From: an uncultured Acidobacteriota bacterium
GTDB lineage: Bacteria > Acidobacteriota > Vicinamibacteria > Vicinamibacterales > Fen-181
Length of the DNA: 64,000 nucleotides
Assembly: GCA_963698725.1 (NCBI GenBank)
Contig: CAVORY010000011.1
Coordinates: forward strand, 446,499 to 510,498
Direction of reading: 5' to 3'
Shown here: positions 1,928 through 28,379 of the stretch, in pieces
Layout of the letters: every line of letters starts with the position of its first letter
Position numbering within the stretch: position 1 is the stretch's first letter
Position numbers and translations under genes: made by a program
Notes under the pieces: generated by a model
What the model was told of the DNA's origin: nothing
Databases searched by the model: none
What the model saw: the letters and a program-made list of their open reading frames with translations, nothing else

Positions 1928-4402
1928 ATGGACACCATGAACCTGATTCCGGGCGACCTGAAGTTCGGCGCAAGGCTCCTGTGGAGGAACAGGGGGTTCG
2001 CCGCCACTGCCGTGGCGACACTGGCCGTGTGCATCGCGGTCAACACCGCCATCTTCAGCGTGGTCGAGTCGGTGGTGCTGCGGCCGCTGCCGTTCCCCGA
2101 ATCGGACCGGGTGCTGCTGATGTACAACAGCTACCCTGGCGCCGGGGTGGAGCGGGCCTCGAATGGTGTCCCCGACTACTACGACCGCCTCGCCGGGATG
2201 CCCGCGTTCGAGGAGCAGGCGCTCTTCAACACGCCGAACCTGACGATCGGCTCCGCTGGCTCGGTCCAGCAGGTCCCCGGCATGAGCGTGACCCCCTCGT
2301 TCTTCAGGCTGCTCCGGGCCAGGCCGCTCGTCGGACGGCTGTTCGTGGAAGAGGATGGAGAAATCGGCAAGCAGCGCAAGGCCGTCCTCAGCTATGCGCT
2401 CTGGCAGGAACTCTATGCCGGCGACAGGTCGGTCATCGGCAAGGACATCCGGATCTACGGAAATCCCTACACCATCGTCGGCGTCCTGCCCCGGGACTTC
2501 TCCTTCCTGGATCCGCGGGTCCGCGTGTACCGGCCGCTGGCCTTCACGCCGGAACAGAAGTCTGATGACGCCCGGCACAACAACAGCTGGGAGATGATCG
2601 GCCGGTTGAAACCGGCCGCCACACGGGAGCAGGCCCAGGCGCAGCTCGACGTCATCAACGCCGCCAACATGTCGCGGCTTCCGCATTTCAGGGAGATCCT
2701 CACCAACGCCCGGTTCTCTACCCGCGCAATGCCGCTCCAGGATGAAGTGGTGAAGCCGATTCGGAAGACACTCTTCCTGCTCTGGGGCGGCGCGGTGTTC
2801 GTGCTCCTGATCGGCGTGATCAACATCGCCAATCTCGCCGTCGCCCGCGGCAGCGTGCGGATGCGGGAACTGGCGACGCGCTCCGCCCTCGGGGCCGGGC
2901 GGTGGCGGATCGCGCGCCAGCTGCTGACCGAGAGCGTCCTGATGACAGCCGGCGGCACGGCGCTGGGGCTGCTGCTCGGATACTGGGGACTCGGCGTGCT
3001 GCGACTCCTGCACGTCGAGCGGATCCCGAGGGGCGCGGAGGTCGGCCTCAGCGGAACGGTCGTGCTCTACGTGCTGGGACTGTCGGTGGCGGCGGCGGTG
3101 GTCATCGGGGTGATCCCCGTCGTCCAGGCGCTGCGGGTGAGCCTGGTCTCGGTGCTGCGTGACGACACGAGGACGGGCACCGGCGGACGGGGCGGCCGGG
3201 TGCTCCGCCACGGGCTGGTGGTGGCGCAGGTGGCCTTCGCGCTGATCCTGCTGATGGGCGCGGGCCTGCTCACCGCCAGCTTCCGCCAGGTCCTGGCGAT
3301 CCGTCCCGGCTTCGTCCCCGAACAGGTGGTGACCGGAACGGTGGGCCTTCCGGGGGCCCGATACCGGGACAATGCGGCGATGCGCTCGTTCACGGAACGG
3401 TCGCTGGAGAAGATCCGCGCGATCCCCGGCGTCCTCGAGGCCGGCGTCACCAACGCGATCCCGTTCGGCTCCGACTTCAGCGACAGCGTCATCATGGCCG
3501 AGGGCTACACGATGAAGCCCGGCGAGTCGCTCATTTCCGGCGACAACATGTCCGTCACGCCCCGGTATTTCGAGGCGCTGAAAGTGCCGCTCAAGGAAGG
3601 GCGCTTCTTCGACGAACGCGACACGCCCGACTCCCTGCGGGTCATCATCATCGACGAGAGGCTGGCGCGGAAGTTCTTCCCAGGCACGAACGCGGTCGGC
3701 AGACGGATGTGGCGCCCCACCAGCCCCGACGCGTTTCAGGACCCGTCCAAAGGGACCTACTACACGATCGTCGGCGTCGTCGGGGGGATCAAGCTGCGAG
3801 CCCTGGTGGACACCGACGAGCGCGTGGGCAGCTACTACTTTCCGTACTCGCAGAATCCGGATTCGGGGGTCACCTTCGCGGTCAGGTCGGCGGTGGAACC
3901 AGGGTCGCTCAAGGCCGCGATGCGGAAGGTGGTCACGGAGGTCGATCCCGAACTCCCCCTGTTCGACGTGCTGACGCTCCAGGAGCGGATTGACGACTCG
4001 CTGACGAGCCGCCGATCGCCGATGCTCCTGTCGCTGGGCTTCGGCGCGGTCGCGCTCTTCCTGGCCGCCGTCGGCATCTACGGCGTGCTGGCCTACCTCG
4101 TGGCCAGACGCGCGAGGGAGATCGGCATCCGCATGGCGCTCGGGAGCGACGGAAACCGGATCTTCAGGCTGGTGTTCACGGAAGGCGCGGTGATCGTCGC
4201 GGCCGGCGTCGGCCTGGGCGTGCTGGGATCCTGGGCGCTGGGCCGGTACCTCGAGAGCGCGCTGTTCGGGGTGCGGCCGCTGGATCCGGTGGTCATGGCG
4301 TCGACAGGAGTGACCTTGATCGTGGTCGCGCTGCTGGCGACGACGCTGCCGGCGTGGCGCGCGGCGAAGGTCGACCCGATCATCGCACTGCGGCAGGAGT
4401 AG
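1928..4402 (+). CDS. ADOP-family ABC transporter permease (duplicated MacB/FtsX-type)
   Basis: 824 aa. N-terminal TM after the RNRGFAATAV motif, two MacB periplasmic-domain/FtsX 4-TM modules, and a C-terminal PAWRAAKVDPIIALRQE tail typical of the family. Confidence 0.9.
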   Translation: MDTMNLIPGDLKFGARLLWRNRGFAATAVATLAVCIAVNTAIFSVVESVVLRPLPFPESDRVLLMYNSYPGAGVERASNGVPDYYDRLAGMPAFEEQALFNTPNLTIGSAGSVQQVPGMSVTPSFFRLLRARPLVGRLFVEEDGEIGKQRKAVLSYALWQELYAGDRSVIGKDIRIYGNPYTIVGVLPRDFSFLDPRVRVYRPLAFTPEQKSDDARHNNSWEMIGRLKPAATREQAQAQLDVINAANMSRLPHFREILTNARFSTRAMPLQDEVVKPIRKTLFLLWGGAVFVLLIGVINIANLAVARGSVRMRELATRSALGAGRWRIARQLLTESVLMTAGGTALGLLLGYWGLGVLRLLHVERIPRGAEVGLSGTVVLYVLGLSVAAAVVIGVIPVVQALRVSLVSVLRDDTRTGTGGRGGRVLRHGLVVAQVAFALILLMGAGLLTASFRQVLAIRPGFVPEQVVTGTVGLPGARYRDNAAMRSFTERSLEKIRAIPGVLEAGVTNAIPFGSDFSDSVIMAEGYTMKPGESLISGDNMSVTPRYFEALKVPLKEGRFFDERDTPDSLRVIIIDERLARKFFPGTNAVGRRMWRPTSPDAFQDPSKGTYYTIVGVVGGIKLRALVDTDERVGSYYFPYSQNPDSGVTFAVRSAVEPGSLKAAMRKVVTEVDPELPLFDVLTLQERIDDSLTSRRSPMLLSLGFGAVALFLAAVGIYGVLAYLVARRAREIGIRMALGSDGNRIFRLVFTEGAVIVAAGVGLGVLGSWALGRYLESALFGVRPLDPVVMASTGVTLIVVALLATTLPAWRAAKVDPIIALRQE

Positions 4403-4420
4403 GTTCAGGGGACCTCGTGG

Positions 4421-4440
4421 GGCAAGCCTCTGTGCTTGCC
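4421..4440. terminator. Hairpin between convergent genes (GGCAAGC-ctctgt-GCTTGCC)
   Basis: Perfect 7-bp stem with a 6-nt loop between the ADOP stop (4402) and the Uma2 stop (4449). No U-tract. Confidence 0.4.
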
Positions 4441-4448
4441 GGACACAT

Positions 4449-5144
4449 CTACCGTCGATGAGGTCGTCGTCCGGCAGCGGCCCGTGAAGCGGTGACGCGG
4501 CGTTTGCCGGCGCCGGCAGCGCGGCGTCGGCTCACGCCGGCCGGCGTGCTCGAGGCTGCCTCGTCCTGCTCGCCGGTCCACAGGAGCGCCAGGTCCAGCG
4601 GCACCTCCGAGAACGGCTCTGCACGCACGACCTTCGCGCCGGCATGGGCCGCGGCAATCACCCACCGTCCCGCTTCGAGTTGGAGCGCCTCGAGGAGGCG
4701 CGCGGAAGGATCGATGATCCACGCGTGGCCCACCTTCGCGCGCGCGTAGATCTGGAGCTTCTTCGCCCGGTCGAGCATCGCCGTCGAGGGCGATGAGACC
4801 TCGCACACCCAGTCGGGCGCGAGTGTCAGGTACGGCGCGTCCGGCACGTGTGGGAGGCGGCTGCGGCGCCAGCCGGCCAGGTCCGGCACCAACACGTTCC
4901 GGCCGAAGTGAAGCTCGGGCTCGTAGAGGATCACCCAGCCGCCAGGGCCGCCGCGGCCCAGGTCGAACGGTCCCCCAATGAGCACGCCGAGGAGGGAATG
5001 GGTCTTCGCGTGCCGGAGCGCCGGGCGCGGCGACGCATGCAGTTCGCCGTCAACAATCTCCGCCACCATGATGTCCGGGACCTTCTTCAGGTCCTCATAG
5101 GTGGCCCGGCAATCGAAGGGTGGGACGCGCGGCATCGGCTCCAT
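4449..5144 (-). CDS. Uma2-family (DUF820) putative endonuclease
   Basis: Family-like layout: YEDL..., AEIVDGEL, PDLAGW, APDWVCEVSSPST, DRAKKLQIYARAKVGHAWIIDP. The C-terminal ~45 aa tail is low-complexity. Confidence 0.75.
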   Translation of the reverse strand: MEPMPRVPPFDCRATYEDLKKVPDIMVAEIVDGELHASPRPALRHAKTHSLLGVLIGGPFDLGRGGPGGWVILYEPELHFGRNVLVPDLAGWRRSRLPHVPDAPYLTLAPDWVCEVSSPSTAMLDRAKKLQIYARAKVGHAWIIDPSARLLEALQLEAGRWVIAAAHAGAKVVRAEPFSEVPLDLALLWTGEQDEAASSTPAGVSRRRAAGAGKRRVTASRAAAGRRPHRR

Positions 5145-7417: not shown

Positions 7418-9904
7418 CTACTCACACCTCAGCGACACCATCGGATCCACGCGCGCCGCGCGGCGCGCCGGTGCGTAGCACGCCGCCAGCGCGACGAGGA
7501 ACAGAATCGCCGGTACCGTGACGAACGTCAGCGGGTCGCGCGCGCTGACGCCGAAGAGCAGGGCGCTCAGATACCGCGACAGCGCCAGCGCGCCCGCAAG
7601 GCCGACGCAAACGCCAGCGGCCGCGAGCCAGGCGCCGTGCCCGACGACCATGCCGAGCACGCGGCCGCGGCCCGCGCCGAGCGCCATCCGAATCCCAATC
7701 TCGCGCGTCCCCTGCCCAACCAGGTACGCCATGACGCCGTAGGTGCCGACGGCCGCCACGACGAGCGCCAGCAGCGCGAAGACCGTCAGCAGCAGCGCCG
7801 TGAATCGCTGCCGTGCCAGCGACAGGTCGATGTACTGCGCCATCTCACGAACCGAGTACAACGGCAGCGCCGGGTCTATGTCGGCCATGGCCCGGCGGAT
7901 CGGGCCGGCCAGCGACGCGGGATCGACCGTCCCGCGCACGACGACGCTCAGCGTCCGGGTCGGGGCCTGCCCATGCGGCAGGTAGAGCGCAATCCTCGGA
8001 TCGTCGTCCAGCGACTGGTGCTTCACGCGGCCGACCACGCCTGCGACGGTGAGCCATGGGTTCTTCGAATCGACGCCGCCGTGACGCACCCGCTTGCCGA
8101 CGGCCTCGCCCTTCGGCCAGAACTCGCGCGCGAACCGCTCGTCGACAATGACCACTCCCGGGCCCGAGGCCACGTCGCGCTCGTCGAAGAACCGGCCGGC
8201 AACGAGCGGAATCTCCATCGCCTCGAAGTAGCGCCCCGCCACCACGCGCTCGTCGGTGTTGATGAACTGCTCCCCCGGCGGCGGCACCCGCCCCTCGATA
8301 CTGATGGGGGTCCACGCAGGGCTGTCGGTCAGCGGGAGAGCCGAACACCCGCCCGTCGCCCTCACCCCCGGCACCCGGTCGAGGCGTTCCCAGATCCGTT
8401 TGTAGGTGCCGAGCACCGGCTGCGCGCCGGCGTACTGAGGCCCGGCCAGCTGCAGCGCGAACGAGAGGACGCCCCGGGGGTTGAACCCGGGCGCAACGCC
8501 CTGCAGGTTCGCGAAACTCCGGACCAGCAGGCCCGCGCCGATGAGCAGCAGCACCGCCAGGGCCAGCTCCCCGACGACCAGCGCGCGGCGCGTGCGGTGG
8601 CCCCGACCGGCCGCCACGTCGCTCGCGCCCCTCCCCGCCTGCTTCAGCGCCTCCGTCAGATCCGGCCGCGACGCGCGGATGGCCGGCACCAGGCCGAACA
8701 GCACGCCCGAAACGAGCGAAGCGGCGAACGCGAAGCCGAGCACGCGCCAGTCGACGTCCACCTCCGCGAGCCTCGGAATGGACCGCGGGCCGAACCCGCG
8801 CAGCCAGCCGACGCTCCACGTCGCGATCAGCACGCCCAGCGTGCCTCCGCCGAAGGCCAGCACGACGCTCTCGGCCAGCAGCTGTCTGACGATGCGGCCG
8901 CGGCCGGCTCCGAAGGCCGCGCGCACGGCGAACTCCTTGCGCCTCGACAGCGCGCGCGCCAGCATCAGATTCGCCACGTTGGCGCACGCCACCAGGAGTA
9001 CGAACACGACGGCGCCCATCAGCACGTAGAGCCGGAGCCGCACGCCGCCCACCGCCTGCTCGAGCATCGGGACGATGCTGAAGGTCAATCCGCCGTTCGG
9101 CGGATAGACCTCCGGGTGGTCGCGCCGCAGCCGCGCCGTGATCGTGTCCATCTCGGCCTGCGCCTGCGCCGCCGACACGCCCGGCTTGAGCTTGCCGACG
9201 ATGTTGTAGTCTTCACGGTTCCGCGTCCGCGGAGCCGCCTCGCTGAGCGGCAGGGGCAGCACGACCTCGGTTACCTCGCCGCCGTAGAGCAGCGGCAGGA
9301 CGTCGCGCGGCAGCGAGAACGACGCCGGGAGCACGCCGACGACCTGGAACGGCTGCCCGTTCAGGGTGAGCGGCCTCCCCACGATGTCGGGCCGGCCGCC
9401 GTAGCGACGCGTCCACATGCCGTGCGTGAGAATCGCCGTCCCGCCGCGGCCCGGCTTGTCGTCGTCCGCCGTGAACAGACGCCCTTGCGCCGCCGATACG
9501 CCCAGCATCGGCAGGAGAGACGACGACACGCGAACGGCGCCGACCCGCTCCGGCTCGCCCTCGCCGGTCAGGTTCGCCATCGTCCCGATCGCGAGGCCGA
9601 GCTGCTCGAACCCGCGGTGCCCGTCCCTGATGTCGAAGTACTGCGCGGTCGAGAACCAGTCCTCGGCGATGCCGAGACCGGGCGAACGGTTCCAGAGCAC
9701 TGTCAGCCGATCCGCGTCCGCGTACGGAACCGGCCTGAGCAGCAGGGCGTTCAGCACGCTGAAGATCGCGGTCGTGGCGCCCAGGCCGAGCGCCATCGAG
9801 AGAATCGCCGCGGCGGCAAAGCCGCGGTTCGCGGCCAGCGCGCGCACCGCTCGGTTGGCGTCCCCCGCTGCGTCGGCCAAGAAGGCGCGAAGGCGGCGCG
9901 TCAC
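7418..9904 (-). CDS. ADOP-family ABC transporter permease (second copy)
   Basis: 828 aa from the GTG at 9904 (VTRRLRAFLADAAGD...RGFAAAAILSMALGLG), which overlaps the response-regulator stop as GTGA. Ends ...PARRAARVDPMVSLRCE. The ORF extension to 10501 overlaps the regulator and is rejected. Confidence 0.9.
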   Translation of the reverse strand: MTRRLRAFLADAAGDANRAVRALAANRGFAAAAILSMALGLGATTAIFSVLNALLLRPVPYADADRLTVLWNRSPGLGIAEDWFSTAQYFDIRDGHRGFEQLGLAIGTMANLTGEGEPERVGAVRVSSSLLPMLGVSAAQGRLFTADDDKPGRGGTAILTHGMWTRRYGGRPDIVGRPLTLNGQPFQVVGVLPASFSLPRDVLPLLYGGEVTEVVLPLPLSEAAPRTRNREDYNIVGKLKPGVSAAQAQAEMDTITARLRRDHPEVYPPNGGLTFSIVPMLEQAVGGVRLRLYVLMGAVVFVLLVACANVANLMLARALSRRKEFAVRAAFGAGRGRIVRQLLAESVVLAFGGGTLGVLIATWSVGWLRGFGPRSIPRLAEVDVDWRVLGFAFAASLVSGVLFGLVPAIRASRPDLTEALKQAGRGASDVAAGRGHRTRRALVVGELALAVLLLIGAGLLVRSFANLQGVAPGFNPRGVLSFALQLAGPQYAGAQPVLGTYKRIWERLDRVPGVRATGGCSALPLTDSPAWTPISIEGRVPPPGEQFINTDERVVAGRYFEAMEIPLVAGRFFDERDVASGPGVVIVDERFAREFWPKGEAVGKRVRHGGVDSKNPWLTVAGVVGRVKHQSLDDDPRIALYLPHGQAPTRTLSVVVRGTVDPASLAGPIRRAMADIDPALPLYSVREMAQYIDLSLARQRFTALLLTVFALLALVVAAVGTYGVMAYLVGQGTREIGIRMALGAGRGRVLGMVVGHGAWLAAAGVCVGLAGALALSRYLSALLFGVSARDPLTFVTVPAILFLVALAACYAPARRAARVDPMVSLRCE

Positions 9905-19251: not shown

Positions 19252-19370
19252 CCGGGTGCAGGGCCCCATCGTCTCCCCCACACGCGGCCCGTGGCGGGAT
19301 GCTACACCTTTATCAGTCCGCAAGCCCGAGGCCTGTTGGATAATCCACCGACCCGATAAGCCGACAGAAC

Positions 19371-19404
19371 GACTGAACAAGTCGACTGAACAAGTCGATT
19401 GACA
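19371..19404 (+). promoter_or_regulatory. Tandem 13-mer GACTGAACAAGTC x2 abutting a TTGACA hexamer; candidate operator/-35 region upstream of the hydrogenase operon
   Basis: Exact direct duplication at 19371-19383 and 19384-19396, with TTGACA at 19399-19404. Lies in a 505-bp leader that looks AT-richer by eye. The -10 is weak (CACACT 17 nt downstream). Confidence 0.3.
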
Positions 19405-19756
19405 TCGGGCCGAGTCGGCCCCACACTACGCGTGGCGTCCCGGCCGACCGTCCTCGACGGGTGGGACGCTTCCGGGCGTTTGACACGAAGTCGGGTTCGT
19501 CGTCAGACCTCGTGCACGGCTAGACGGACTACGCGGGAACTTGACTCATTCGCGGCGGCTTCGACTGTTCGACACGTTCAGGGTCGAGGTGGAGTTTCGC
19601 GGCAAGCGGTTCCGGTTGGCGCGTGGCCTCATTCCAGTTTTTCGCATCAGGCCGGCCACTGCCGTCGCGCTCCTGCCTTCCGATCCTGCAAGCGGTCGCG
19701 TTCGTTGAGGAAGCGGTGTGTGCGCGGCCTGCCCACGGCCGCGAGGAGAACCGATC

Positions 19757-21775
19757 ATGTTCGACGCCACCGGTCCCGTGCCTGACGGAACGATGCCGGA
19801 GGTCCAGCGGATGCGCATCGGCGTGTTCATCTGCCACTGCGGCGGCAACATCTCGGACGTGGTGGACGTCAAGCGGGTGGCCGAAGAAGCCTCGCGCATG
19901 CCGGACGTCGCGTTCGCGACGACGCACATGTTCAACTGCTCCGACCCGGGGCAGGCGCTGATCGAGCAGAAGATTCGCGAGCATGCGCTGACGCGCGTCA
20001 TCGTCGCGGCCTGCTCGCCGACGCTTCATCAGATCACGTTCCGGCGGGCGATCGAACGCGCCGGCCTCAACCAGTACCTCTTCGAGCACGTCAACATCCG
20101 CGAGCACGTGTCGTGGGTCATCGAGGATGGCGAGGCGGCCACGGCGAAGGCGTCGCGCCTGGTGCGCGCGGCGGTCAACCGGGCTCGCCATCTCGTTCCG
20201 CTCGATCAGCGCCGCATCCCGATTCACCCGGCGGCCCTGGTCATCGGCGGCGGCGTGGCCGGGCTGATGGCGGCACGCGATCTGGCCGACCGCGGGATGA
20301 AGGTGACGCTCATCGAGAAGCGGCCGTTCCTCGGCGGCCGGATGGCCCAGCTGTGGAACCTGTTCCCGACCGGCGAGGAGGCGCGCCCGATGCTCCTCGA
20401 ACTGGTTCACGACGTCGTGAGGCACCCGCTCGTCACGGTTCTCACCGGCGCGCACGTCACCGACTCGGAGGGCGTTGTCGGCGACTTCAAGACGAAGGTC
20501 ACCATCGACCCGCGGGGCGTGGACGAGCGGCTGACCTACCCGGGCAACGCGATTGCGGCCTGCCCGGAGGAGACGATCAGCGAGTTCGACTTCGCGCTCA
20601 GCCGCCGCAAGGCGATCTATATGCCGTACCCGGGATGCTACCCGCCGATCCCGGCCATCGACTGGCACACGTGCACGAAATGCGGGAAGTGCGTGGCGGC
20701 GGTGGGCGGGAAAGGGATCAACCTCAACGCCCAGCCGCGCGAGCTGACGCTGCACTCCGGCGTCATCGTTCTGGCCACCGGCTACGACCCGTACGAGCCG
20801 CTGCTCGGCGAGTTCGGCTACGGGATCTTCCCCAAGGTGATCACCCTTCAGCAGCTGCACCGGATGCTCGACCCGGAGGGGCCGACGGCGGGCGCGCTCC
20901 CCGTGGACACCCAGAAGCCGGTCCGGATCGGATTCCTGCACTGCGTCGGCGCGCGGCAGATCGAAGGCGTGAACGCGCCGCAGCCGGACGGCAAGGTGAA
21001 GGACTACTGCGCGCGCACCTGCTGCACGGCGGCCATGCACGCGGCGGTCGCCATCAAGGAACGCCTGCCGAACGCGCAGATCACGTCGTTCTACCAGGAC
21101 ATGCGGACCTACGGCCGGGGGCACGAGGAGTACTACGAGAAGGCGTCGGAGAAGGGCGTGCTGTTCGTCCGGTACAGCCCGCGGCACCCGCCGCGCGTCG
21201 ACAAGGACCGCTCGGGCCAGTGGCCGCTGGTCGTGCGCACGAAGGACCTGCTGACCGACAACCTGGCCATCGAAGTGCCGCTGGATCTGCTGGTGCTGGC
21301 GACGGGCGTCGTGCCGCACGACATCTCCGAGCTGGTGACGATGTACTCGTGCGCGGTCGGGTACGACAGTTTCCTGCTCGAGGTGCATCCCAAGCTGAGG
21401 CCGGTCGAACTGGCGGTGTCCGGCGTGTTCCTGGCCGGCTGCTGCCAGGGGCCGATGGACGTCACCGAGGCGTGTTCGGCCGCGTCGGCGGCCGCCTCGA
21501 AGGCGGCGGCGATGATCTCGCAGGGCCAGGTGGAGATGGACCCGTTCATCGCGAGCGTCGACGAGGCGGTGTGCACCGGGTGCGCCACCTGCCTGACGGT
21601 GTGCCCGTACGACGCGATCAGCCGCGACGAAGCGAGGGGGCTGGCGATGGTGAGCGAGGCGCTCTGCACCGGGTGCGGCACGTGCGCCGCCACCTGCCCG
21701 AGCGCGGCCATCCAGCAGGCCGGGTTCAACGACGACCAGGTGCGCGCGGAGCTCGAGGTGCTGCTGGCGGGGTAG
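19757..21775 (+). CDS. hdrA: HdrA-like FAD/FeS flavoprotein (heterodisulfide reductase subunit A family)
   Basis: N-terminal Cys cluster IGVFICHCGGNI, Rossmann motif VIGGGVAGLMAARDLA, and C-terminal 2x[4Fe-4S] motifs CTGCATCLTVCP and CTGCGTCAATCP. RBS GAGGAG. Confidence 0.9.
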   Translation: MFDATGPVPDGTMPEVQRMRIGVFICHCGGNISDVVDVKRVAEEASRMPDVAFATTHMFNCSDPGQALIEQKIREHALTRVIVAACSPTLHQITFRRAIERAGLNQYLFEHVNIREHVSWVIEDGEAATAKASRLVRAAVNRARHLVPLDQRRIPIHPAALVIGGGVAGLMAARDLADRGMKVTLIEKRPFLGGRMAQLWNLFPTGEEARPMLLELVHDVVRHPLVTVLTGAHVTDSEGVVGDFKTKVTIDPRGVDERLTYPGNAIAACPEETISEFDFALSRRKAIYMPYPGCYPPIPAIDWHTCTKCGKCVAAVGGKGINLNAQPRELTLHSGVIVLATGYDPYEPLLGEFGYGIFPKVITLQQLHRMLDPEGPTAGALPVDTQKPVRIGFLHCVGARQIEGVNAPQPDGKVKDYCARTCCTAAMHAAVAIKERLPNAQITSFYQDMRTYGRGHEEYYEKASEKGVLFVRYSPRHPPRVDKDRSGQWPLVVRTKDLLTDNLAIEVPLDLLVLATGVVPHDISELVTMYSCAVGYDSFLLEVHPKLRPVELAVSGVFLAGCCQGPMDVTEACSAASAAASKAAAMISQGQVEMDPFIASVDEAVCTGCATCLTVCPYDAISRDEARGLAMVSEALCTGCGTCAATCPSAAIQQAGFNDDQVRAELEVLLAG

Positions 21776-21786
21776 GGACGGAGGGC

Positions 21787-21861
21787 GGCTCAGGGCTTAG
21801 GGCTTAGGGCTCAGGGCCTTGAGCCATGAGCCTTGAGCCATGAGCCTTGAGCCTTGAGCCT
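21787..21861. repeat. Heptamer-built hairpin (GGCTYAG units facing YTGAGCC units) inside the operon
   Basis: Left arm GGCTCAG GGCTTAG GGCTTAG GGCTCAG. Right arm TTGAGCC ATGAGCC TTGAGCC ATGAGCC TTGAGCC TTGAGCC. The arms are mutually complementary. Confidence 0.9.
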
Positions 21862-21906
21862 GGCGCCCGGGAGCGGCGGGGTCGTCCGGCGGAGGAGACA
21901 GAGCAT

Positions 21907-22422
21907 ATGACCGACACGGACATCGTGACCAGGCCGGACGAAACCGCCAAGCCGGGCGCCTGGGAGCCGCGCATCATCGCGTTCCTCTGTTACTGGTGCT
22001 CGTACACGGGCGCCGACAACGCGGGGACCGCTCGCCTGAAGTACCCGGCCAACATCGACATCATCCGCGTGATGTGCTCGGGACGCATCGACCCCGACCT
22101 CATCATGACCGCGTTCGCCAAGGGGGCGGACGGCGTGATGGTGTGCGGCTGCCACATCGGCGACTGCCACTACATCGCCGGCAACCACAAGACGATGGCG
22201 CGCATGCCGATGGTCGCGCGGGTGCTCGGGGACTTCGGCATCGAGCCGGAGCGATTCGTGCACGAGTGGGTCAGCGCCGCCGAGGGGGACAAGTTCGCGC
22301 GCCTGGTCCGCCAGGTCACCGAGCAGGTCCGGCAGGCGGGCCCGCTCAACTGGCCCGCGCGCATGCGGCAGCGCGGCGTGGGGCACGGCCAGGACCTGCA
22401 TCCCTGGGGAGAAGAGGCATGA
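21907..22422 (+). CDS. mvhD: MvhD/FlpD-type hydrogenase iron-sulfur subunit
   Basis: PRIIAFLCYWCSY...IRVMCSGRIDP...VMVCGCHIGDCHY motif set. GGAGGA RBS. Confidence 0.9.
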   Translation: MTDTDIVTRPDETAKPGAWEPRIIAFLCYWCSYTGADNAGTARLKYPANIDIIRVMCSGRIDPDLIMTAFAKGADGVMVCGCHIGDCHYIAGNHKTMARMPMVARVLGDFGIEPERFVHEWVSAAEGDKFARLVRQVTEQVRQAGPLNWPARMRQRGVGHGQDLHPWGEEA

Positions 22423-23411
22423 CTGCAAGCATCCCGGCGGCCGAACGGCAGCCCGGCAAACTCCGGATCGGGATGTACTGGGCGTCGAGTTGCGGCGGGT
22501 GCGACATCTCGCTGCTCGAGATCGCCGAACACCTGCTCGAGCTGATCGAAGTCGCCGACGTCGTCCTGTGGCCGTGCGTGGCCGACTTCAAGTACCGCAC
22601 CGTCGCCGACTACCCGGACGGGTACATCGACGTCTGCCTGTTCAACGGCGGCGTCCGCAGCTCGGAGCAGGAGGAGATCGCGCGGCTCGTCAGACGCAAG
22701 AGCCGGACGCTGGCCGCCTACGGCGCCTGCGCCATGGACGGCGGCATCCCCGCGCTCGCCAACCTGAAGTCGTCCGACGAGATCTACGACGCCGTCTATC
22801 GCACCAACCCGACGCTGTACAACCCAGGCAAGACGGAGCCGGTCGAGCGGTGGTCCACTCCCCAGGGCGACCTGACGCTCCCCCGGCTCTACCCGCAGGT
22901 TCTCCGCCTGGCGGATGTCGTCCACGTGGATTACCAGATCCCGGGGTGCCCGCCCGTCGGCGCCCAGGTCTGGAAGGTGCTGCAGGCGGTGGCGGCTGGC
23001 GAGGTGCCGGCCCGCGCCGACGCCGTCCGCATCGGCTGCGACAACCGGTCGGTGTGCGACGAGTGCCACCGCGAGAAGCGCAAGACCCGCGTGAAGGAGT
23101 TCAAGCGGCCGCACCTGGCGATCCCCGAGCCCAACTGGTGCCTGCTGGAGCAGGGATTCGTGTGCCTCGGCGCCGCCACCCGCAGCGGCTGCGGCGCGCT
23201 GTGCACGAAGGCGGAAATCACCTGCCGCGGCTGCTACGGCGCCTCGGGCCTGGCGGCCGACCAGGGAACGGCCATGCTCAGCGCGCTCGGCTCGGTCATC
23301 GACGCGACGACCGAGGACCGGGCCCGCGAGATCGTGGACGGGATCGCCGATCCGACCGGGACGTTCTATCGCTTCAGTCTGGCGTCGAGCACGCTCAAGG
23401 CCCGCCGGTGA
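22419..23411 (+). CDS. mvhG: [NiFe]-hydrogenase small subunit (group 3, MvhG-like)
   Basis: ATGA overlap with mvhD. MYWASSCGGCDISLLE proximal-cluster motif and distal Cys clusters (CDECHREK, CLGAATRSGCGALC, CRGCYG). Confidence 0.9.
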   Translation: MTASIPAAERQPGKLRIGMYWASSCGGCDISLLEIAEHLLELIEVADVVLWPCVADFKYRTVADYPDGYIDVCLFNGGVRSSEQEEIARLVRRKSRTLAAYGACAMDGGIPALANLKSSDEIYDAVYRTNPTLYNPGKTEPVERWSTPQGDLTLPRLYPQVLRLADVVHVDYQIPGCPPVGAQVWKVLQAVAAGEVPARADAVRIGCDNRSVCDECHREKRKTRVKEFKRPHLAIPEPNWCLLEQGFVCLGAATRSGCGALCTKAEITCRGCYGASGLAADQGTAMLSALGSVIDATTEDRAREIVDGIADPTGTFYRFSLASSTLKARR

Positions 23412-25006: not shown

Positions 25007-26323
25007 ATGGCTGAGATGAGGGACCGGTACGACGCGCTCGTGATCGGCGGGGGCATCGCCGGCATGCAGGCAGCCCTCGACCTGGGCGAGCAGGGGTTCG
25101 AGGTGCTCCTGGTCGAGCGCACGCCGTCGATCGGCGGCGTGATGGTCGGGCTCAACAAGGTCTTCCCCACGCTCGACTGTTCGTCCTGCATCTGCACCCC
25201 CCGCATGGCGGAATCGGCGCACCACCCGCGCATCCGGCTGCAGACCTACACGGAGGTCCGGTCGGTCGAACCGGTCGGCACCGGCTTCAGCGTGGATCTC
25301 GAGTGCAAGCCGCGCTACCTCCACGAGGACACCTGCATCGGCTGCGACGAGTGCGAGCTGGCGTGCCCGATCGAGGTGCCGCACGAATTCGACTACGGCC
25401 TCGGCGCGCGGCGCGCCATCTATATTCCCCACGGGAACGCCATCCCCCAGAAGGCGGTGCTCGATCTCGAGCACTGCGTCTTCTGCGGCAAGTGCGAGAA
25501 GGTCTGCCCGACACACTGCATCGACTTCACCGCCGAGGCGAAGCACGCCCGCGTGGACGTCGGCGCCGTGATCGTGGCCACGGGCCTCGACATCCTGCCC
25601 ATGGACAGGAAGCCGGAGTACGGCGGGACGCTGCCGAACGTCATGAGCCCGCTCGCCATGGAGCGTATCCAGTCGAGCAACGGGCCCTACGGGCGCGTGC
25701 TGCGGCCGGCGGACGGCAAGATCCCGCGGTCGATCGCTTACATCCAGTGCGCTGGCAGCCGCGACCGCTCGATCGGCGTGCCGTACTGCTCGCGGGTCTG
25801 CTGCATGTACGCGCTCAAGCAGGCCCTGCTGCTGCGCCACTACATCCACGACGTCGAAGTCGCCCTCTACTACATGGACATCCGCGCGTTCGGGAAGGGC
25901 TACGAGCAGTTCTACCGGCGGGCGGTGGCCGAGGGCGTCAACGTGATCAAGGGCAAGGTGGCCCGCGTCACCCAGACGGACAACTTCGACCTGATCCTGC
26001 GCGTGGAACTGCTCGACGAGGGGGGCCGCGTCGACGAGCACCGCTACGATCTGGTCGTGCTCAGCCAGGGTCTGATCGCCGCCTGGCACCCCGACGGCGT
26101 CATCGACATCGAAGATGCCGACGACGGGTTCATCCACACGCCGGAGATCAAGCTGAACCCGTCGTTCACCACGATGCCCGGCGTCTTCGTCGGGGGCGTG
26201 GCCGCCGGCCCGAAGGACATCCCGGACGCGATTGTCGAGGCGGGCGAGGCGGCGATGGCGGCGGCCAATTACCTGAAGCGGTACCGGTGGCGTTCGAGCA
26301 GGCCGGCGGTCGCCGTCGCGTAG
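25007..26323 (+). CDS. Second HdrA-like FAD-dependent oxidoreductase with 2x[4Fe-4S]
   Basis: VIGGGIAGMQAALDLGE Rossmann motif, CSSCICTPRM, and ferredoxin motifs CIGCDECELACP and CVFCGKCEKVCP. 438 aa. Confidence 0.85.
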   Translation: MAEMRDRYDALVIGGGIAGMQAALDLGEQGFEVLLVERTPSIGGVMVGLNKVFPTLDCSSCICTPRMAESAHHPRIRLQTYTEVRSVEPVGTGFSVDLECKPRYLHEDTCIGCDECELACPIEVPHEFDYGLGARRAIYIPHGNAIPQKAVLDLEHCVFCGKCEKVCPTHCIDFTAEAKHARVDVGAVIVATGLDILPMDRKPEYGGTLPNVMSPLAMERIQSSNGPYGRVLRPADGKIPRSIAYIQCAGSRDRSIGVPYCSRVCCMYALKQALLLRHYIHDVEVALYYMDIRAFGKGYEQFYRRAVAEGVNVIKGKVARVTQTDNFDLILRVELLDEGGRVDEHRYDLVVLSQGLIAAWHPDGVIDIEDADDGFIHTPEIKLNPSFTTMPGVFVGGVAAGPKDIPDAIVEAGEAAMAAANYLKRYRWRSSRPAVAVA

Positions 26324-26371: not shown

Positions 26372-26671
26372 ATGCCTGAACCAACCGCGGCGAAAGCCGA
26401 CAAGCCGAAACGAGCGATCGAGGTCCTCCGCGAGCGGCACGGCGGCATGTCGAAAGAGCTCAAGGACTACTTCAACGAGCAGCAGAAGATCTACAAGGCG
26501 CTGCGCGCCGCGCTCAAGAACGGGCCGCGCACCGTCCCGCAGCTCGCCAAGGAGTGCGGCCTACCATCGCCCACCGTCATGTGGCACCTGATGGCGCTGC
26601 GCCGCTACGGCCAGGTGCTCGACGGCCCCGAAGAGAACGGCTACCTGCGCTACACGCTTCCGGGGGCATGA
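26372..26671 (+). CDS. Small winged-helix (ArsR-like) DNA-binding protein
   Basis: 99 aa. The PRTVPQLAKECGLPSPTVMWHLMALRRYGQV helix-turn-helix is followed by a wing. The stop overlaps the next start as ATGA. Confidence 0.65.
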   Translation: MPEPTAAKADKPKRAIEVLRERHGGMSKELKDYFNEQQKIYKALRAALKNGPRTVPQLAKECGLPSPTVMWHLMALRRYGQVLDGPEENGYLRYTLPGA

Positions 26672-27867
26672 TCATGCAGCACTACAGGGTGGACCCGACG
26701 CTCGGCACAGAACTCGCCGCCTTCGGCGGCCGGACGCTCGGCCGGTGTTTCAGTTGCGGGAACTGCACGGCGGTGTGCGGGCTCTCGAAGGGCGATACCG
26801 TCTTCCCCCGGAAGATCATCCGCTACCTCCAGGTGGGCCTCTCCGACCGGCTCCTGGAATCGCCCGAGCCATGGCTGTGCTACTACTGCGGCACCTGCTC
26901 GGAGACCTGCCCGCGCGATGCCGAGCCGGGCGAGCTGATGATGGCCGCCAGGCGGTGGCTCGTCAGCCGCTACGACTGGACCGGCTTGTCCAAGCGCCTC
27001 TACCTCTCCGAGGCCTGGGAGTTCGGCCTGCTCGGAGCGATAGCCCTCTTCGTGCTGGCGCTCTTCCTCGTCCCGGGCTGGCTCGGCCTGCCCTTCGGCT
27101 TCGCGAACATCAACGAGGCCGCCACCCAGCACGTCCGCCTCGACCTCTTCGCGCCCACGCACGTCATCCACTATGCCGACTGGGCGCTGGCGGCGCTGCT
27201 CGCCGGCCTGCTCGGCACCAACGCGGCGCGCATGATCATGTTCGTGAGAAGAGGAAGCGCGGGGCTGACGATCCCGCTCTCGATCTGGCTGGGCAAGGCG
27301 CACGAGTTCGTCGTGCACGGCCTCACCCAGAAGCGATGGCTCCAGTGCGACGCCGACGCGCGGTTCAAGTGGCTGAAGCACTTCGTGCTGGTGACCGGCT
27401 ACGCCACCGTCCTGCTGCTCGTCGTCGTGTTCCTGCCGGCGTTCCAGCGCGAGGACGCCCAGTTCCACTGGACCTCACTCCTCGGCTACTACAGCACCGC
27501 CACGATCCTCGGCGTCACGGCGCTGGCCATGCGCAGCCGGCTGCAGAAGAAGGAGCAGTACCACAAGTTCTCGCACGCCAGCGACTGGACGTTCCTGGTG
27601 CTCCTCTTCCTCACCGCGCTCTCGGGCATCGTCCTCCACCTGTTCCGCCTGTTCGACATGCCCTGGCCGACCTACGTGCTCTACGTCGTCCACCTCATGA
27701 TCGCCGTCCCGATGCTCATCATCGAGGTGCCGTTCGGCAAGTGGAACCACCTGGCGTTCCGCCCGCTGGCGCAGTACCTCGTCGAAGTGCGCGCGGCGGC
27801 GCAAGCGAAGCAGCCGGCGCCGACTCAGGCGGTCCGCCATACCCCCGCCCACGTGGGCGCACGATGA
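26668..27867 (+). CDS. HdrC-like 2x[4Fe-4S] domain fused to a 5-6 TM His-rich membrane domain (NarI/DsrM/HdrE-like)
   Basis: N-terminal CFSCGNCTAVCG and CYYCGTCSETCPR motifs. Then hydrophobic helices carrying conserved-looking His (HVIHYADW, HEFVVHG, HLFRLF, VVHLMIAVP). Confidence 0.75.
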   Translation: MIMQHYRVDPTLGTELAAFGGRTLGRCFSCGNCTAVCGLSKGDTVFPRKIIRYLQVGLSDRLLESPEPWLCYYCGTCSETCPRDAEPGELMMAARRWLVSRYDWTGLSKRLYLSEAWEFGLLGAIALFVLALFLVPGWLGLPFGFANINEAATQHVRLDLFAPTHVIHYADWALAALLAGLLGTNAARMIMFVRRGSAGLTIPLSIWLGKAHEFVVHGLTQKRWLQCDADARFKWLKHFVLVTGYATVLLLVVVFLPAFQREDAQFHWTSLLGYYSTATILGVTALAMRSRLQKKEQYHKFSHASDWTFLVLLFLTALSGIVLHLFRLFDMPWPTYVLYVVHLMIAVPMLIIEVPFGKWNHLAFRPLAQYLVEVRAAAQAKQPAPTQAVRHTPAHVGAR

Positions 27868-28379
27868 CCTTGCCGGCGCGTGAACCGGGCACGACCATCG
27901 TCTTGGGTCTCGGAAACCCGGTCCGCTACGACGACGCGGTCGGGTTGCGCGTGGCGGAAGCGGTCGAGCGCCTGCTGGCCGCCGAGCCGCTGCCCGGCGT
28001 CCGCGTGGCGACGAGCACGCGGGCCGGCCTGGAGCTGATCGACCTCCTCTCGGGCGCCTCGCGCGCCGTGATCGTGGACTGCCTGGTCCGGCCGGACCCC
28101 GTGCCCGGCCGCGTCACCCGCCTCACGCTGGAGGATGTGGCCGGGTCGGCGCGGCTCGTCGGCGCGCACGACGTGACCGTCGACACCGCCTTCAGGTTCG
28201 CCCGCGCCGCCGGCGTGCCGATGCCTGGCACCGTGGACATCTACGCCGTCGAAGCCGCCGACATCGATCGGATCGAAGAGGGCCTGTCGCCTGCCGTGGC
28301 CTCGGCCGTCGACGAGGTGGCCCGCGAGATTCACCGCCGCCTGTCCTTCCCCTCCCCCTGCCGTTGCGCCGCGGTGTAA
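27864..28379 (+). CDS. Hydrogenase maturation endopeptidase (HyaD/HybD/FrhD family)
   Basis: ATGA overlap with the previous gene. IVLGLGNPVRYDDAVG, IVDC and GAHD motifs. Confidence 0.85.
   Translation: MTLPAREPGTTIVLGLGNPVRYDDAVGLRVAEAVERLLAAEPLPGVRVATSTRAGLELIDLLSGASRAVIVDCLVRPDPVPGRVTRLTLEDVAGSARLVGAHDVTVDTAFRFARAAGVPMPGTVDIYAVEAADIDRIEEGLSPAVASAVDEVAREIHRRLSFPSPCRCAAV

Follow-up and report, generated by a model that had tools for sequence, protein, structure and literature searches.

A 64,000-nucleotide stretch of contig CAVORY010000011.1 from an uncultured Acidobacteriota bacterium, referred to here as the window, carries a gene that joins an HdrC-like iron-sulfur (FeS) domain to a membrane domain and that directly follows a gene for a small winged helix-turn-helix (wHTH) protein. 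By homology, the product of the fusion gene is a QmoC-type membrane redox subunit, composed of an HdrC-like di-cluster domain and a NarI/HdrE-type domain. It is encoded among hydrogenase and hdrA genes (Table 1), and we infer that the likeliest product of the whole set is a membrane-anchored flavin-based bifurcating hydrogenase in which menaquinone replaces the heterodisulfide. Taken together, a QmoC-type anchor, a bifurcating complex and a wHTH protein acting by protein contacts form the explanation that we consider best, and one that we hold to be reasonably probable.

In order to place the fusion protein, we compared it with curated family models and with solved structures. Residues 14-368 align collinearly with positions 7-357 of the 360-position NCBIfam qmoC model NF038018, at a score of 184 bits that lies under the curated cut-off of 300 for this equivalog. 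The genome encodes a second copy on contig C6 that reaches 378 bits with the same model and is a true QmoC; the two proteins are collinear and 27% identical. Given this identity, the difference in score and the location of the contig C6 copy in an apr-qmo-dsr cluster, the window protein is a distant paralogue of the genome's QmoC and not QmoC itself. Its N-terminal domain displays two FeS motifs, C27-x2-C30-x2-C33-x3-C37 and C71-x2-C74-x2-C77-x3-C81-P82, whose eight Cys residues are invariant in 64 aligned sequences. This domain is matched by Pfam Fer4_8, Fer4_9 and Fer4_17, residues 6-95 align to HdrC in solved Hdr complexes (8rvv_C, E 1.5e-14), and the AlphaFold2 (AF2) model falls on HdrC in Foldseek with a probability of 1.0 and a root-mean-square deviation of 2.1-2.6 Å. 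The HdrC model TIGR03290 is matched at positions 3-75 of 144 only, with 57.7 bits, and its cut-off of 160 is not reached.

A previous reading of the DNA letters alone (the original prediction) had proposed an HdrC-like di-cluster N terminus joined to a His-bearing membrane part resembling NarI, HdrE or DsrM, and Pfam, the HdrC alignment, the AF2 model and the qmoC model bear out this layout. It had named only those three proteins and overlooked QmoC, the family that has exactly this fusion and that is described in the literature as an HdrC-like di-cluster domain with an HdrE/NarI-like di-haem b domain (PMC3333476). Because it is identical to the published QmoC design and the qmoC model is matched over the whole length, the HdrC-like/membrane fusion architecture is already known and not new. 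It is also real: a mis-joined pair of genes, or another artefact of this assembly, is ruled out by conserved synteny and by 2,528 full-length homologues in the database (349-409 aa, E <= 0.001), and 580 loci in reference genomes encode a relative.

The AF2 model of the QmoC-like protein (mean predicted local distance difference test score, pLDDT, 92.4) contains six membrane helices, at residues 115-134, 164-195, 231-254, 269-293, 304-328 and 332-356, followed by an amphipathic helix at 358-381; the membrane domain seen in the original prediction is retained, and its count of five to six helices is refined to six. Lys and Arg residues cluster in the loops 194-237 and 291-301 and in the C-terminal tail. 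Based on these clusters, read by the positive-inside rule, and on the AF2 helices, the FeS domain and both termini are predicted to be cytoplasmic. Conserved His residues sit inside or at the ends of the predicted helices. H238, H342 and H361 are invariant in 82 sequences that include true QmoC, as are C227, K358 and R365, down to 27% identity. All 31 hydrogenase-linked members have H267, which true QmoC has too; H168 is likewise invariant in these 31 and is replaced by Glu outside the hydrogenase-linked group, while H324 is also conserved. A lack of conserved His pairs among orthologues had been named as the result that would speak against haem ligation, and conservation was found instead. 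C227 (nt 27346-27348) lies in the cytoplasmic loop before helix 3, and K358 (27739-27741) and R365 (27760-27762) lie after helix 6.

The spacing of these residues resembles that of Escherichia coli NarI. VVH342-x18-H361, with H361 in PFGKWNH, parallels RLH187-x17-H205 of NarI, with H205 in PFSRLIH, and NarI H56 has its parallel in H238, located where helix 3 begins on the cytoplasmic side. A counterpart of NarI H66 is absent from helix 3, and H267 on the next helix likely replaces it. On the predicted topology, one haem would be ligated by H238 and H361 close to the cytoplasm and the FeS domain, and a second, towards the outer (periplasmic) side, by H342 together with H267 (or H324 or H168); the membrane domain should then bind two haems b and react with menaquinone.

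Several observations weigh against this assignment. Haem binding and quinone reactivity would follow from homology only, Pfam Nitrate_red_gam (PF02665) has no direct match to the window protein, and hhalign against E. coli NarI is insignificant (probability 0.3). Foldseek against the PDB retrieves NarI (1y5l_C) weakly, at rank 26 with a probability of 0.75 and a TM-score of 0.41, so that a direct link of the membrane domain to NarI was rejected. Structures of QmoC, HdrE and DsrM are absent from the 50 best PDB matches listed. Of the structural comparison with NarI and DsrM that had been proposed, the HdrC-like part is thus matched, NarI only weakly, and DsrM does not appear among these 50. The genome's true QmoC does match PF02665, and the NarI-family link of the window protein is only transitive. 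The missing Pfam match and the weak structural likeness would also fit a membrane domain that is a mere anchor, devoid of haem or of quinone reactivity; the hydrogenase would then in effect be of the soluble Mvh-HdrA type, with ferredoxin or a different soluble carrier as its acceptor. Yet a passive anchor would not be expected to keep H238, H342, H361, K358, R365 and C227 across all 82 sequences, nor the NarI-like spacing and motif, and we consider it very unlikely.

The QmoC-like gene belongs to a set of eight closely packed genes on the + strand, in the order hdrA, mvhD, mvhG, mvhA, short hdrA, wHTH, qmoC-like and a maturation protease gene. mvhA, mvhG, mvhD and hdrA are encoded together, i.e. 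the Mvh-Hdr (group 3c type) gene set is present, and the MvhA translation contains the motifs RICGVCPEAH and DPCFGCATH. The long HdrA covers residues 3-647 of the HdrA chain 5odc_A (E 3e-163) and is presumed to be the bifurcating subunit; together with the separate MvhD it has the domain content of QmoB and of HdrA2. The short HdrA retains the flavin part with its inserted ferredoxin part; the two terminal domains of HdrA, the C-terminal one being a ferredoxin domain, are missing from it. The ATG of the qmoC-like gene (26668-26670) overlaps the wHTH stop codon TGA (26669-26671) as ATGA, and the coordinates thereby confirm the overlap described in the original prediction. A second in-frame ATG at 26674 opens the sequence MQHYRV, with which most homologues begin. 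The true start may therefore be located 2 nt past the wHTH stop; the two genes are tightly coupled whichever start applies. In the same ATGA manner, the qmoC-like stop codon (27865-27867) overlaps the ATG of the protease gene at 27864. In the operon leader (19252-19756), a promoter-like block TTGACA ... CACACTAC is common to the window and two related loci (L006 and L007), and a block GGCGGTTCCGGTTGGCGCGTGGCCTCATT is common to the window, L006 and L009 and partly to L010 and L011; the leader block may represent a regulatory site or leader RNA. An alignment of six leaders revealed conserved blocks but no clear common palindrome that could serve as an operator upstream of hdrA.

We then compared the eight window proteins by tblastn with 80 fetched loci and built a tree of the QmoC-like proteins; the two together resolve four groups of loci. 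The first has the full eight-gene order, and its roughly 31 fetched loci are spread over several Acidobacteriota classes, NC10/Methylomirabilota, Gemmatimonadota, metagenome-assembled genomes (MAGs) labelled Pseudomonadota and one Geobacteraceae MAG; co-occurrence of the fusion with mvhADG across genomes, suggested as a check, is therefore observed. The second is a hydrogenase-less sister operon of an mvhD-like gene, short hdrA, long hdrA, wHTH and qmoC-like genes in Planctomycetota, Krumholzibacteriota, Myxococcota and the Asgard archaea Hodarchaeota (loci L022, L024, L025, L036, L038, L042, L043, L046, L051, L058, L065, L068, L078, L086 and L087). In at least 11 loci dsrE and tusA stand ahead of this operon, Hodarchaeota having tusA only, and an ArsR gene is found nearby in 8 of the 15 loci, upstream of dsrE in three of them. 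This arrangement suggests a sulfur relay, in place of H2, as the input to the same membrane core. The third group consists of Desulfobacterota proteins of about 690-850 aa, most of about 765, in which the QmoC-like part is fused to a Fer4 and two CCG domains, as in HdrF (loci L039, L045, L047, L050, L052-L055, L060, L062, L063, L066, L067, L069, L071-L073, L076, L077, L080, L081, L083 and L084). These are nested within the wHTH-linked clade of the tree and have no wHTH gene. Groups one to three form one clade with 100% support in the Shimodaira-Hasegawa-like approximate likelihood ratio test (SH-aLRT). Outside that clade stands the fourth group, Acidobacteriota loci ordered qmoA-qmoB-qmoC without a wHTH gene, and true QmoC is far away. 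In one locus (L007) hdrA and short hdrA each appear as two overlapping tblastn pieces (2974-4990 and 8318-9632), which are probably frameshift errors of the MAG assembly.

In the complex that we propose, full-length HdrA, MvhD, MvhG, MvhA, short HdrA and the QmoC-like subunit would assemble into one membrane-anchored unit. H2 would be oxidised at MvhA, and, by way of MvhG and MvhD, electrons would reach the HdrA flavin, which would split them. One branch would lead over the HdrA ferredoxin domains to ferredoxin; the other would lead over the HdrC-like clusters and the two haems to menaquinone, which would fill the role of HdrB and heterodisulfide in methanogens. The reverse, formation of H2 from quinol and reduced ferredoxin, might also be possible. 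The proposed tethering of the Mvh/HdrA module and the quinone branch fit the conserved operon, the lack of a CCG/HdrB subunit and the presence of menA in the genome. This menA gene scores above its cut-off, which makes a menaquinone pool likely. No CCG domain (PF02754) was found in the window, and the nearest match on contig C11 is more than 260 kb away. The CCG genes of the genome lie outside the window, one of them beside the mvh cluster of contig C3 (about 934000-941000; L090, L003), where mvhG, mvhA, a maturation protease gene and an HdrC-like gene stand beside two CCG matches and an HdrA-like match. From this cluster, the genome appears to keep a second, soluble-type Mvh-Hdr set alongside the membrane-linked one. 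With textbook potentials of -414 mV for H2, about -75 mV for menaquinone and about -500 mV for ferredoxin, H2-driven co-reduction of quinone and ferredoxin would be exergonic, and the reverse would need very low H2. A caveat to the forward path is that oxidation of quinol at the outer face is what NarI-type modules, as well as QmoC and HdrE, normally carry out; flow could accordingly run in either direction, and membrane potential may be built up or consumed.

In an alternative, a sulfur carrier or some other cytoplasmic acceptor would replace quinone as the high-potential partner. It would dock on the short HdrA in the way that AprAB docks on QmoA, and the QmoC-like subunit, like that of QmoABC, would feed quinol electrons inward. 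The dsrE and tusA genes ahead of the sister operon are in line with this, as are the contact of QmoA with AprAB in sulfate reducers and the reduction of the QmoC haems by quinols (PMC3333476). The source genome itself carries dsr, apr and qmo genes: at about 4900-15500 of contig C6 (L089, 1901-12521), aprB, aprA, a gene for a 276-aa CxxCxxCC protein, qmoA, qmoB, qmoC, dsrA and dsrB are contiguous and are followed by an 82-aa open reading frame (ORF) without a Pfam match. By its gene content, the organism is an Acidobacteriota-like bearer of the full core of the dissimilatory sulfate pathway. However, dsrE, tusA, dsrC and apr genes are all missing beside the hydrogenase-type operon, in the window as in 31 related loci, the window offers no CCG domain for disulfide or persulfide chemistry, and many carriers, e.g. 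NC10 and Gemmatimonadota, are not known as sulfur respirers. We therefore judge a sulfur partner improbable and retain menaquinone as the preferred acceptor.

The role of the wHTH protein is the least certain step. Made together with the QmoC-like subunit, it would most likely act through protein contacts, as a subunit, an assembly factor or a modulator. Its family is narrow and sharply delimited: 830 clusters were obtained when grouped at 90% identity, and of 1.84 billion proteins 490 representatives belong to it. Its members share the signature TVPE-x-A ... VLWH-x-MAM-K/R-K/R-YG ... GDY-x-Y-x-L. The AF2 model (pLDDT 80) has the layout a0-a1-a2-a3-b-hairpin, with a conserved short first helix (I-x2-LRER-x-GG), and its nearest folds in Foldseek are ArsR/SmtB repressors and Z-alpha domains. 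Besides the family listed in Table 1, the protein matches Pfam HTH_24 and HTH_5; the NCBIfam metalloregulator model gives 18.6 against a cut-off of 55, and C62, the sole Cys, is found in 15 of 41 sequences, so that the conserved metal- or Cys-sensing sites of ArsR/SmtB regulators are lacking. A search for solved relatives by sequence returned none below E 0.05.

The original prediction had described the ATGA-coupled wHTH gene as unusual, but this gene turned out to be a constant feature of the clade. In 49 of the 51 loci that have no fused CCG domain, those of Asgard archaea among them, the wHTH gene immediately precedes the qmoC-like gene. In the 48 loci where tblastn detects both genes, the gap is -4 nt in 25, -1 to +4 nt in 17 and 10-20 nt in 6. 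A divergent 79-aa wHTH protein in L056 was missed by tblastn and spotted by eye; L030 and L049, both in other gene contexts, truly lack the gene, and L082 is an HdrF-type gene cut by a contig end. Of 40 relatives of the source genome, 17 carry the wHTH gene, as a single copy that abuts the close QmoC-like gene, and none of the 40 has one of the two genes without the other; the single adjacent copy is seen in 18 of 18 related genomes that have the close QmoC-like gene.

Two readings of the protein, autoregulator or structural adaptor, had been put forward at the outset. As an ordinary ArsR-like autoregulator of the operon, it would have no part in the complex and its adjacency to the qmoC-like gene would be incidental. 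The Pfam matches agree with this, as do the nearest folds found by Foldseek, among them the ArsR/SmtB repressors SmtB (E 8e-4), NolR, BigR and HlyU. The family is basic (median isoelectric point, pI, 9.6) with conserved Lys or Arg at positions 20, 22, 42, 77 and 78, and conserved promoter-like and leader blocks precede hdrA. On the other hand, the wHTH gene has structural genes of the operon on both sides, shares translational coupling with the one that follows and keeps this position from bacteria to Hodarchaeota. The N-terminal part of the recognition helix (65-69) is variable while W71, Y79 and Y94 are invariant, the model ends with the beta-hairpin and lacks the C-terminal dimerisation helix (alpha5) of ArsR/SmtB, and near the sister operon a separate ArsR gene is found in eight of 15 loci. 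We regard autoregulation as quite possible, though short of probable.

A partner role is favoured by the intra-operon position with translational coupling to the anchor gene, by retention of the wHTH gene with either hydrogenase or DsrE-TusA input from bacteria to Asgard archaea, and by its loss exactly where a CCG domain became fused. Three points run counter to it. The protein is basic and its nearest folds are DNA-binding repressors, co-occurrence with the operon is equally expected of a dedicated local regulator, and fusion of the wHTH protein to a complex subunit was not seen in the best 150 of the 490 representatives, all of which are stand-alone proteins of 69-192 aa. Weighing these, we rate the wHTH protein as a partner of the complex with roughly even confidence; an adaptor fits the data somewhat better than an autoregulator, and either role is putative. 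An action on the enzyme has a parallel in DsrD, which was long suspected to be a DNA binder yet activates DsrAB. DsrD has a winged-helix fold, binds DNA only non-specifically, is an allosteric activator of DsrAB and is Z-alpha-like (PMC8794893). Its gene follows dsrAB, so that DsrD and the window protein are alike in being small, in having a winged-helix fold and in having their genes within the operon of a redox enzyme, and both resemble Z-alpha domains. The likeness is one of analogy only, and DsrD homology was rejected: the wHTH protein has no match to Pfam DsrD, and hhalign to the ORF that follows the genome's dsrB, not itself confirmed as DsrD, gives a probability of 0.4.

Set against known systems, the window protein shares with QmoC (of QmoABC, in sulfate reducers and some sulfur oxidisers; Pires 2003 as cited in PMC3333476) the same two-part architecture with six helices, full-length collinearity and the positions of the Cys and His residues, K358 and R365. 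QmoABC likewise combines a short (QmoA-like) and a long HdrA-type flavoprotein with MvhD, the QmoB-like part being split into two genes in the window; the genome's own QmoA spans positions 142-560 of the HdrA2 model, the same span as the short HdrA. Unlike qmoC, the window gene is not beside qmoAB or aprBA, its neighbours being mvh and hdrA genes; an Mvh hydrogenase is inserted in the operon and a wHTH gene is added, which is absent from the true qmoABC locus and from the Acidobacteriota loci ordered qmoA-qmoB-qmoC. 'Type II' Qmo proteins, which occur both in the company of Dsr/Apr and without them, have been described as closer to HdrA than to canonical QmoAB, their function being unclear (Neukirchen et al. 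2023, PMC10504309). Compared by description, the window protein probably belongs to them; so far as consulted, that article does not mention the mvh link or the winged-helix gene of the window clade. In relation to the MvhAGD-HdrABC complex of methanogens (5odc, 8rvu), MvhA, MvhG, MvhD and full-length HdrA of the window align end to end and the fusion N terminus is HdrC-like. In contrast to that complex, the window has no HdrB/CCG protein, HdrC is fused to a membrane cytochrome-like domain, and a truncated second HdrA and the wHTH protein are added. HdrF of Desulfobacterium autotrophicum has been described (PMC2702500). In the Desulfobacterota HdrF-type proteins of about 765 aa, the N-terminal 385 residues are QmoC-like, 48-53% identical to the window protein and in the same well-supported clade. 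They carry a C-terminal Fer4 and two CCG domains (HdrD-like) and have no wHTH partner, whereas the window protein has no CCG domain, fused or neighbouring.

Table 1. Genes of the window operon and domains of the QmoC-like protein (window coordinates).
Feature	Position	Strand	Support
hdrA, full length, 672 aa, flavin adenine dinucleotide (FAD)/FeS flavoprotein	19757..21775	+	NCBIfam HdrA2 E 6.6e-195, model positions 1-639
mvhD, 191 aa, [2Fe-2S] connector subunit	21847..22422	+	Pfam FlpD E 1.6e-51; NCBIfam VhuD E 8.5e-37
mvhG, hydrogenase small subunit, start approximate	~22401..23411	+	Pfam Oxidored_q6 E 7e-22; NCBIfam VhuG E 1.6e-64
mvhA, [NiFe] large subunit, 504 aa	23431..24945	+	Pfam NiFeSe_Hases; NCBIfam VhuA E 2e-109
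short hdrA, 438 aa, QmoA-like	25007..26323	+	5odc_A residues 146-562 only, E 3.4e-115; HdrA2 model 139-562
wHTH gene, 99 aa, pI 9.6	26372..26671	+	Pfam HTH_20, 28.8 bits against a cut-off of 27
qmoC-like gene, 399 aa, alternative start 26674	26668..27867	+	NCBIfam qmoC NF038018 E 5.6e-54
HdrC-like domain, residues 1-101, two [4Fe-4S] motifs	26668..26970	+	Pfam, HdrC alignment, conservation, Foldseek
six-helix membrane domain with C-terminal amphipathic helix, residues 115-381	27010..27810	+	AF2, conservation
HycI/HybD-type hydrogenase maturation endopeptidase	27864..28379	+	Pfam HycI; TIGR00072 E 4e-27

A full-text literature search returned no description of a QmoC-like-anchored hydrogenase operon without HdrB, of its wide distribution or of its constant wHTH partner. 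In Thermoanaerobaculum aquaticum, clustered hdr and group 3c genes have been noted with 'functions yet unknown' (PMC5317091). More boldly, and in a reading that we hold to be less likely than not, the operon could define an uncharacterised class of membrane-bound, flavin-based bifurcating [NiFe]-hydrogenase that runs from H2 to menaquinone and ferredoxin or in reverse; the wHTH protein would be an integral, non-DNA-binding subunit joining the HdrA pair to the anchor, and the core would be reused with DsrE-TusA input in Planctomycetota and Asgard archaea. In QmoABC-type complexes, the way in which flavin-based bifurcation in the cytoplasm is linked to the quinone pool has yet to be settled (PMC3333476). 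A hydrogenase hard-wired to a QmoC-like anchor without a disulfide-reducing subunit would offer a simpler system for quinone-linked bifurcation, since H2, ferredoxin and quinone would be the only plausible substrates. Following DsrD, the constant wHTH partner may be the second instance in which a redox enzyme has recruited a fold of the DNA-binding type. Finally, the operon is common in soil and sediment Acidobacteriota and in NC10, and it could bear on their metabolism of H2 and low-potential reductant.

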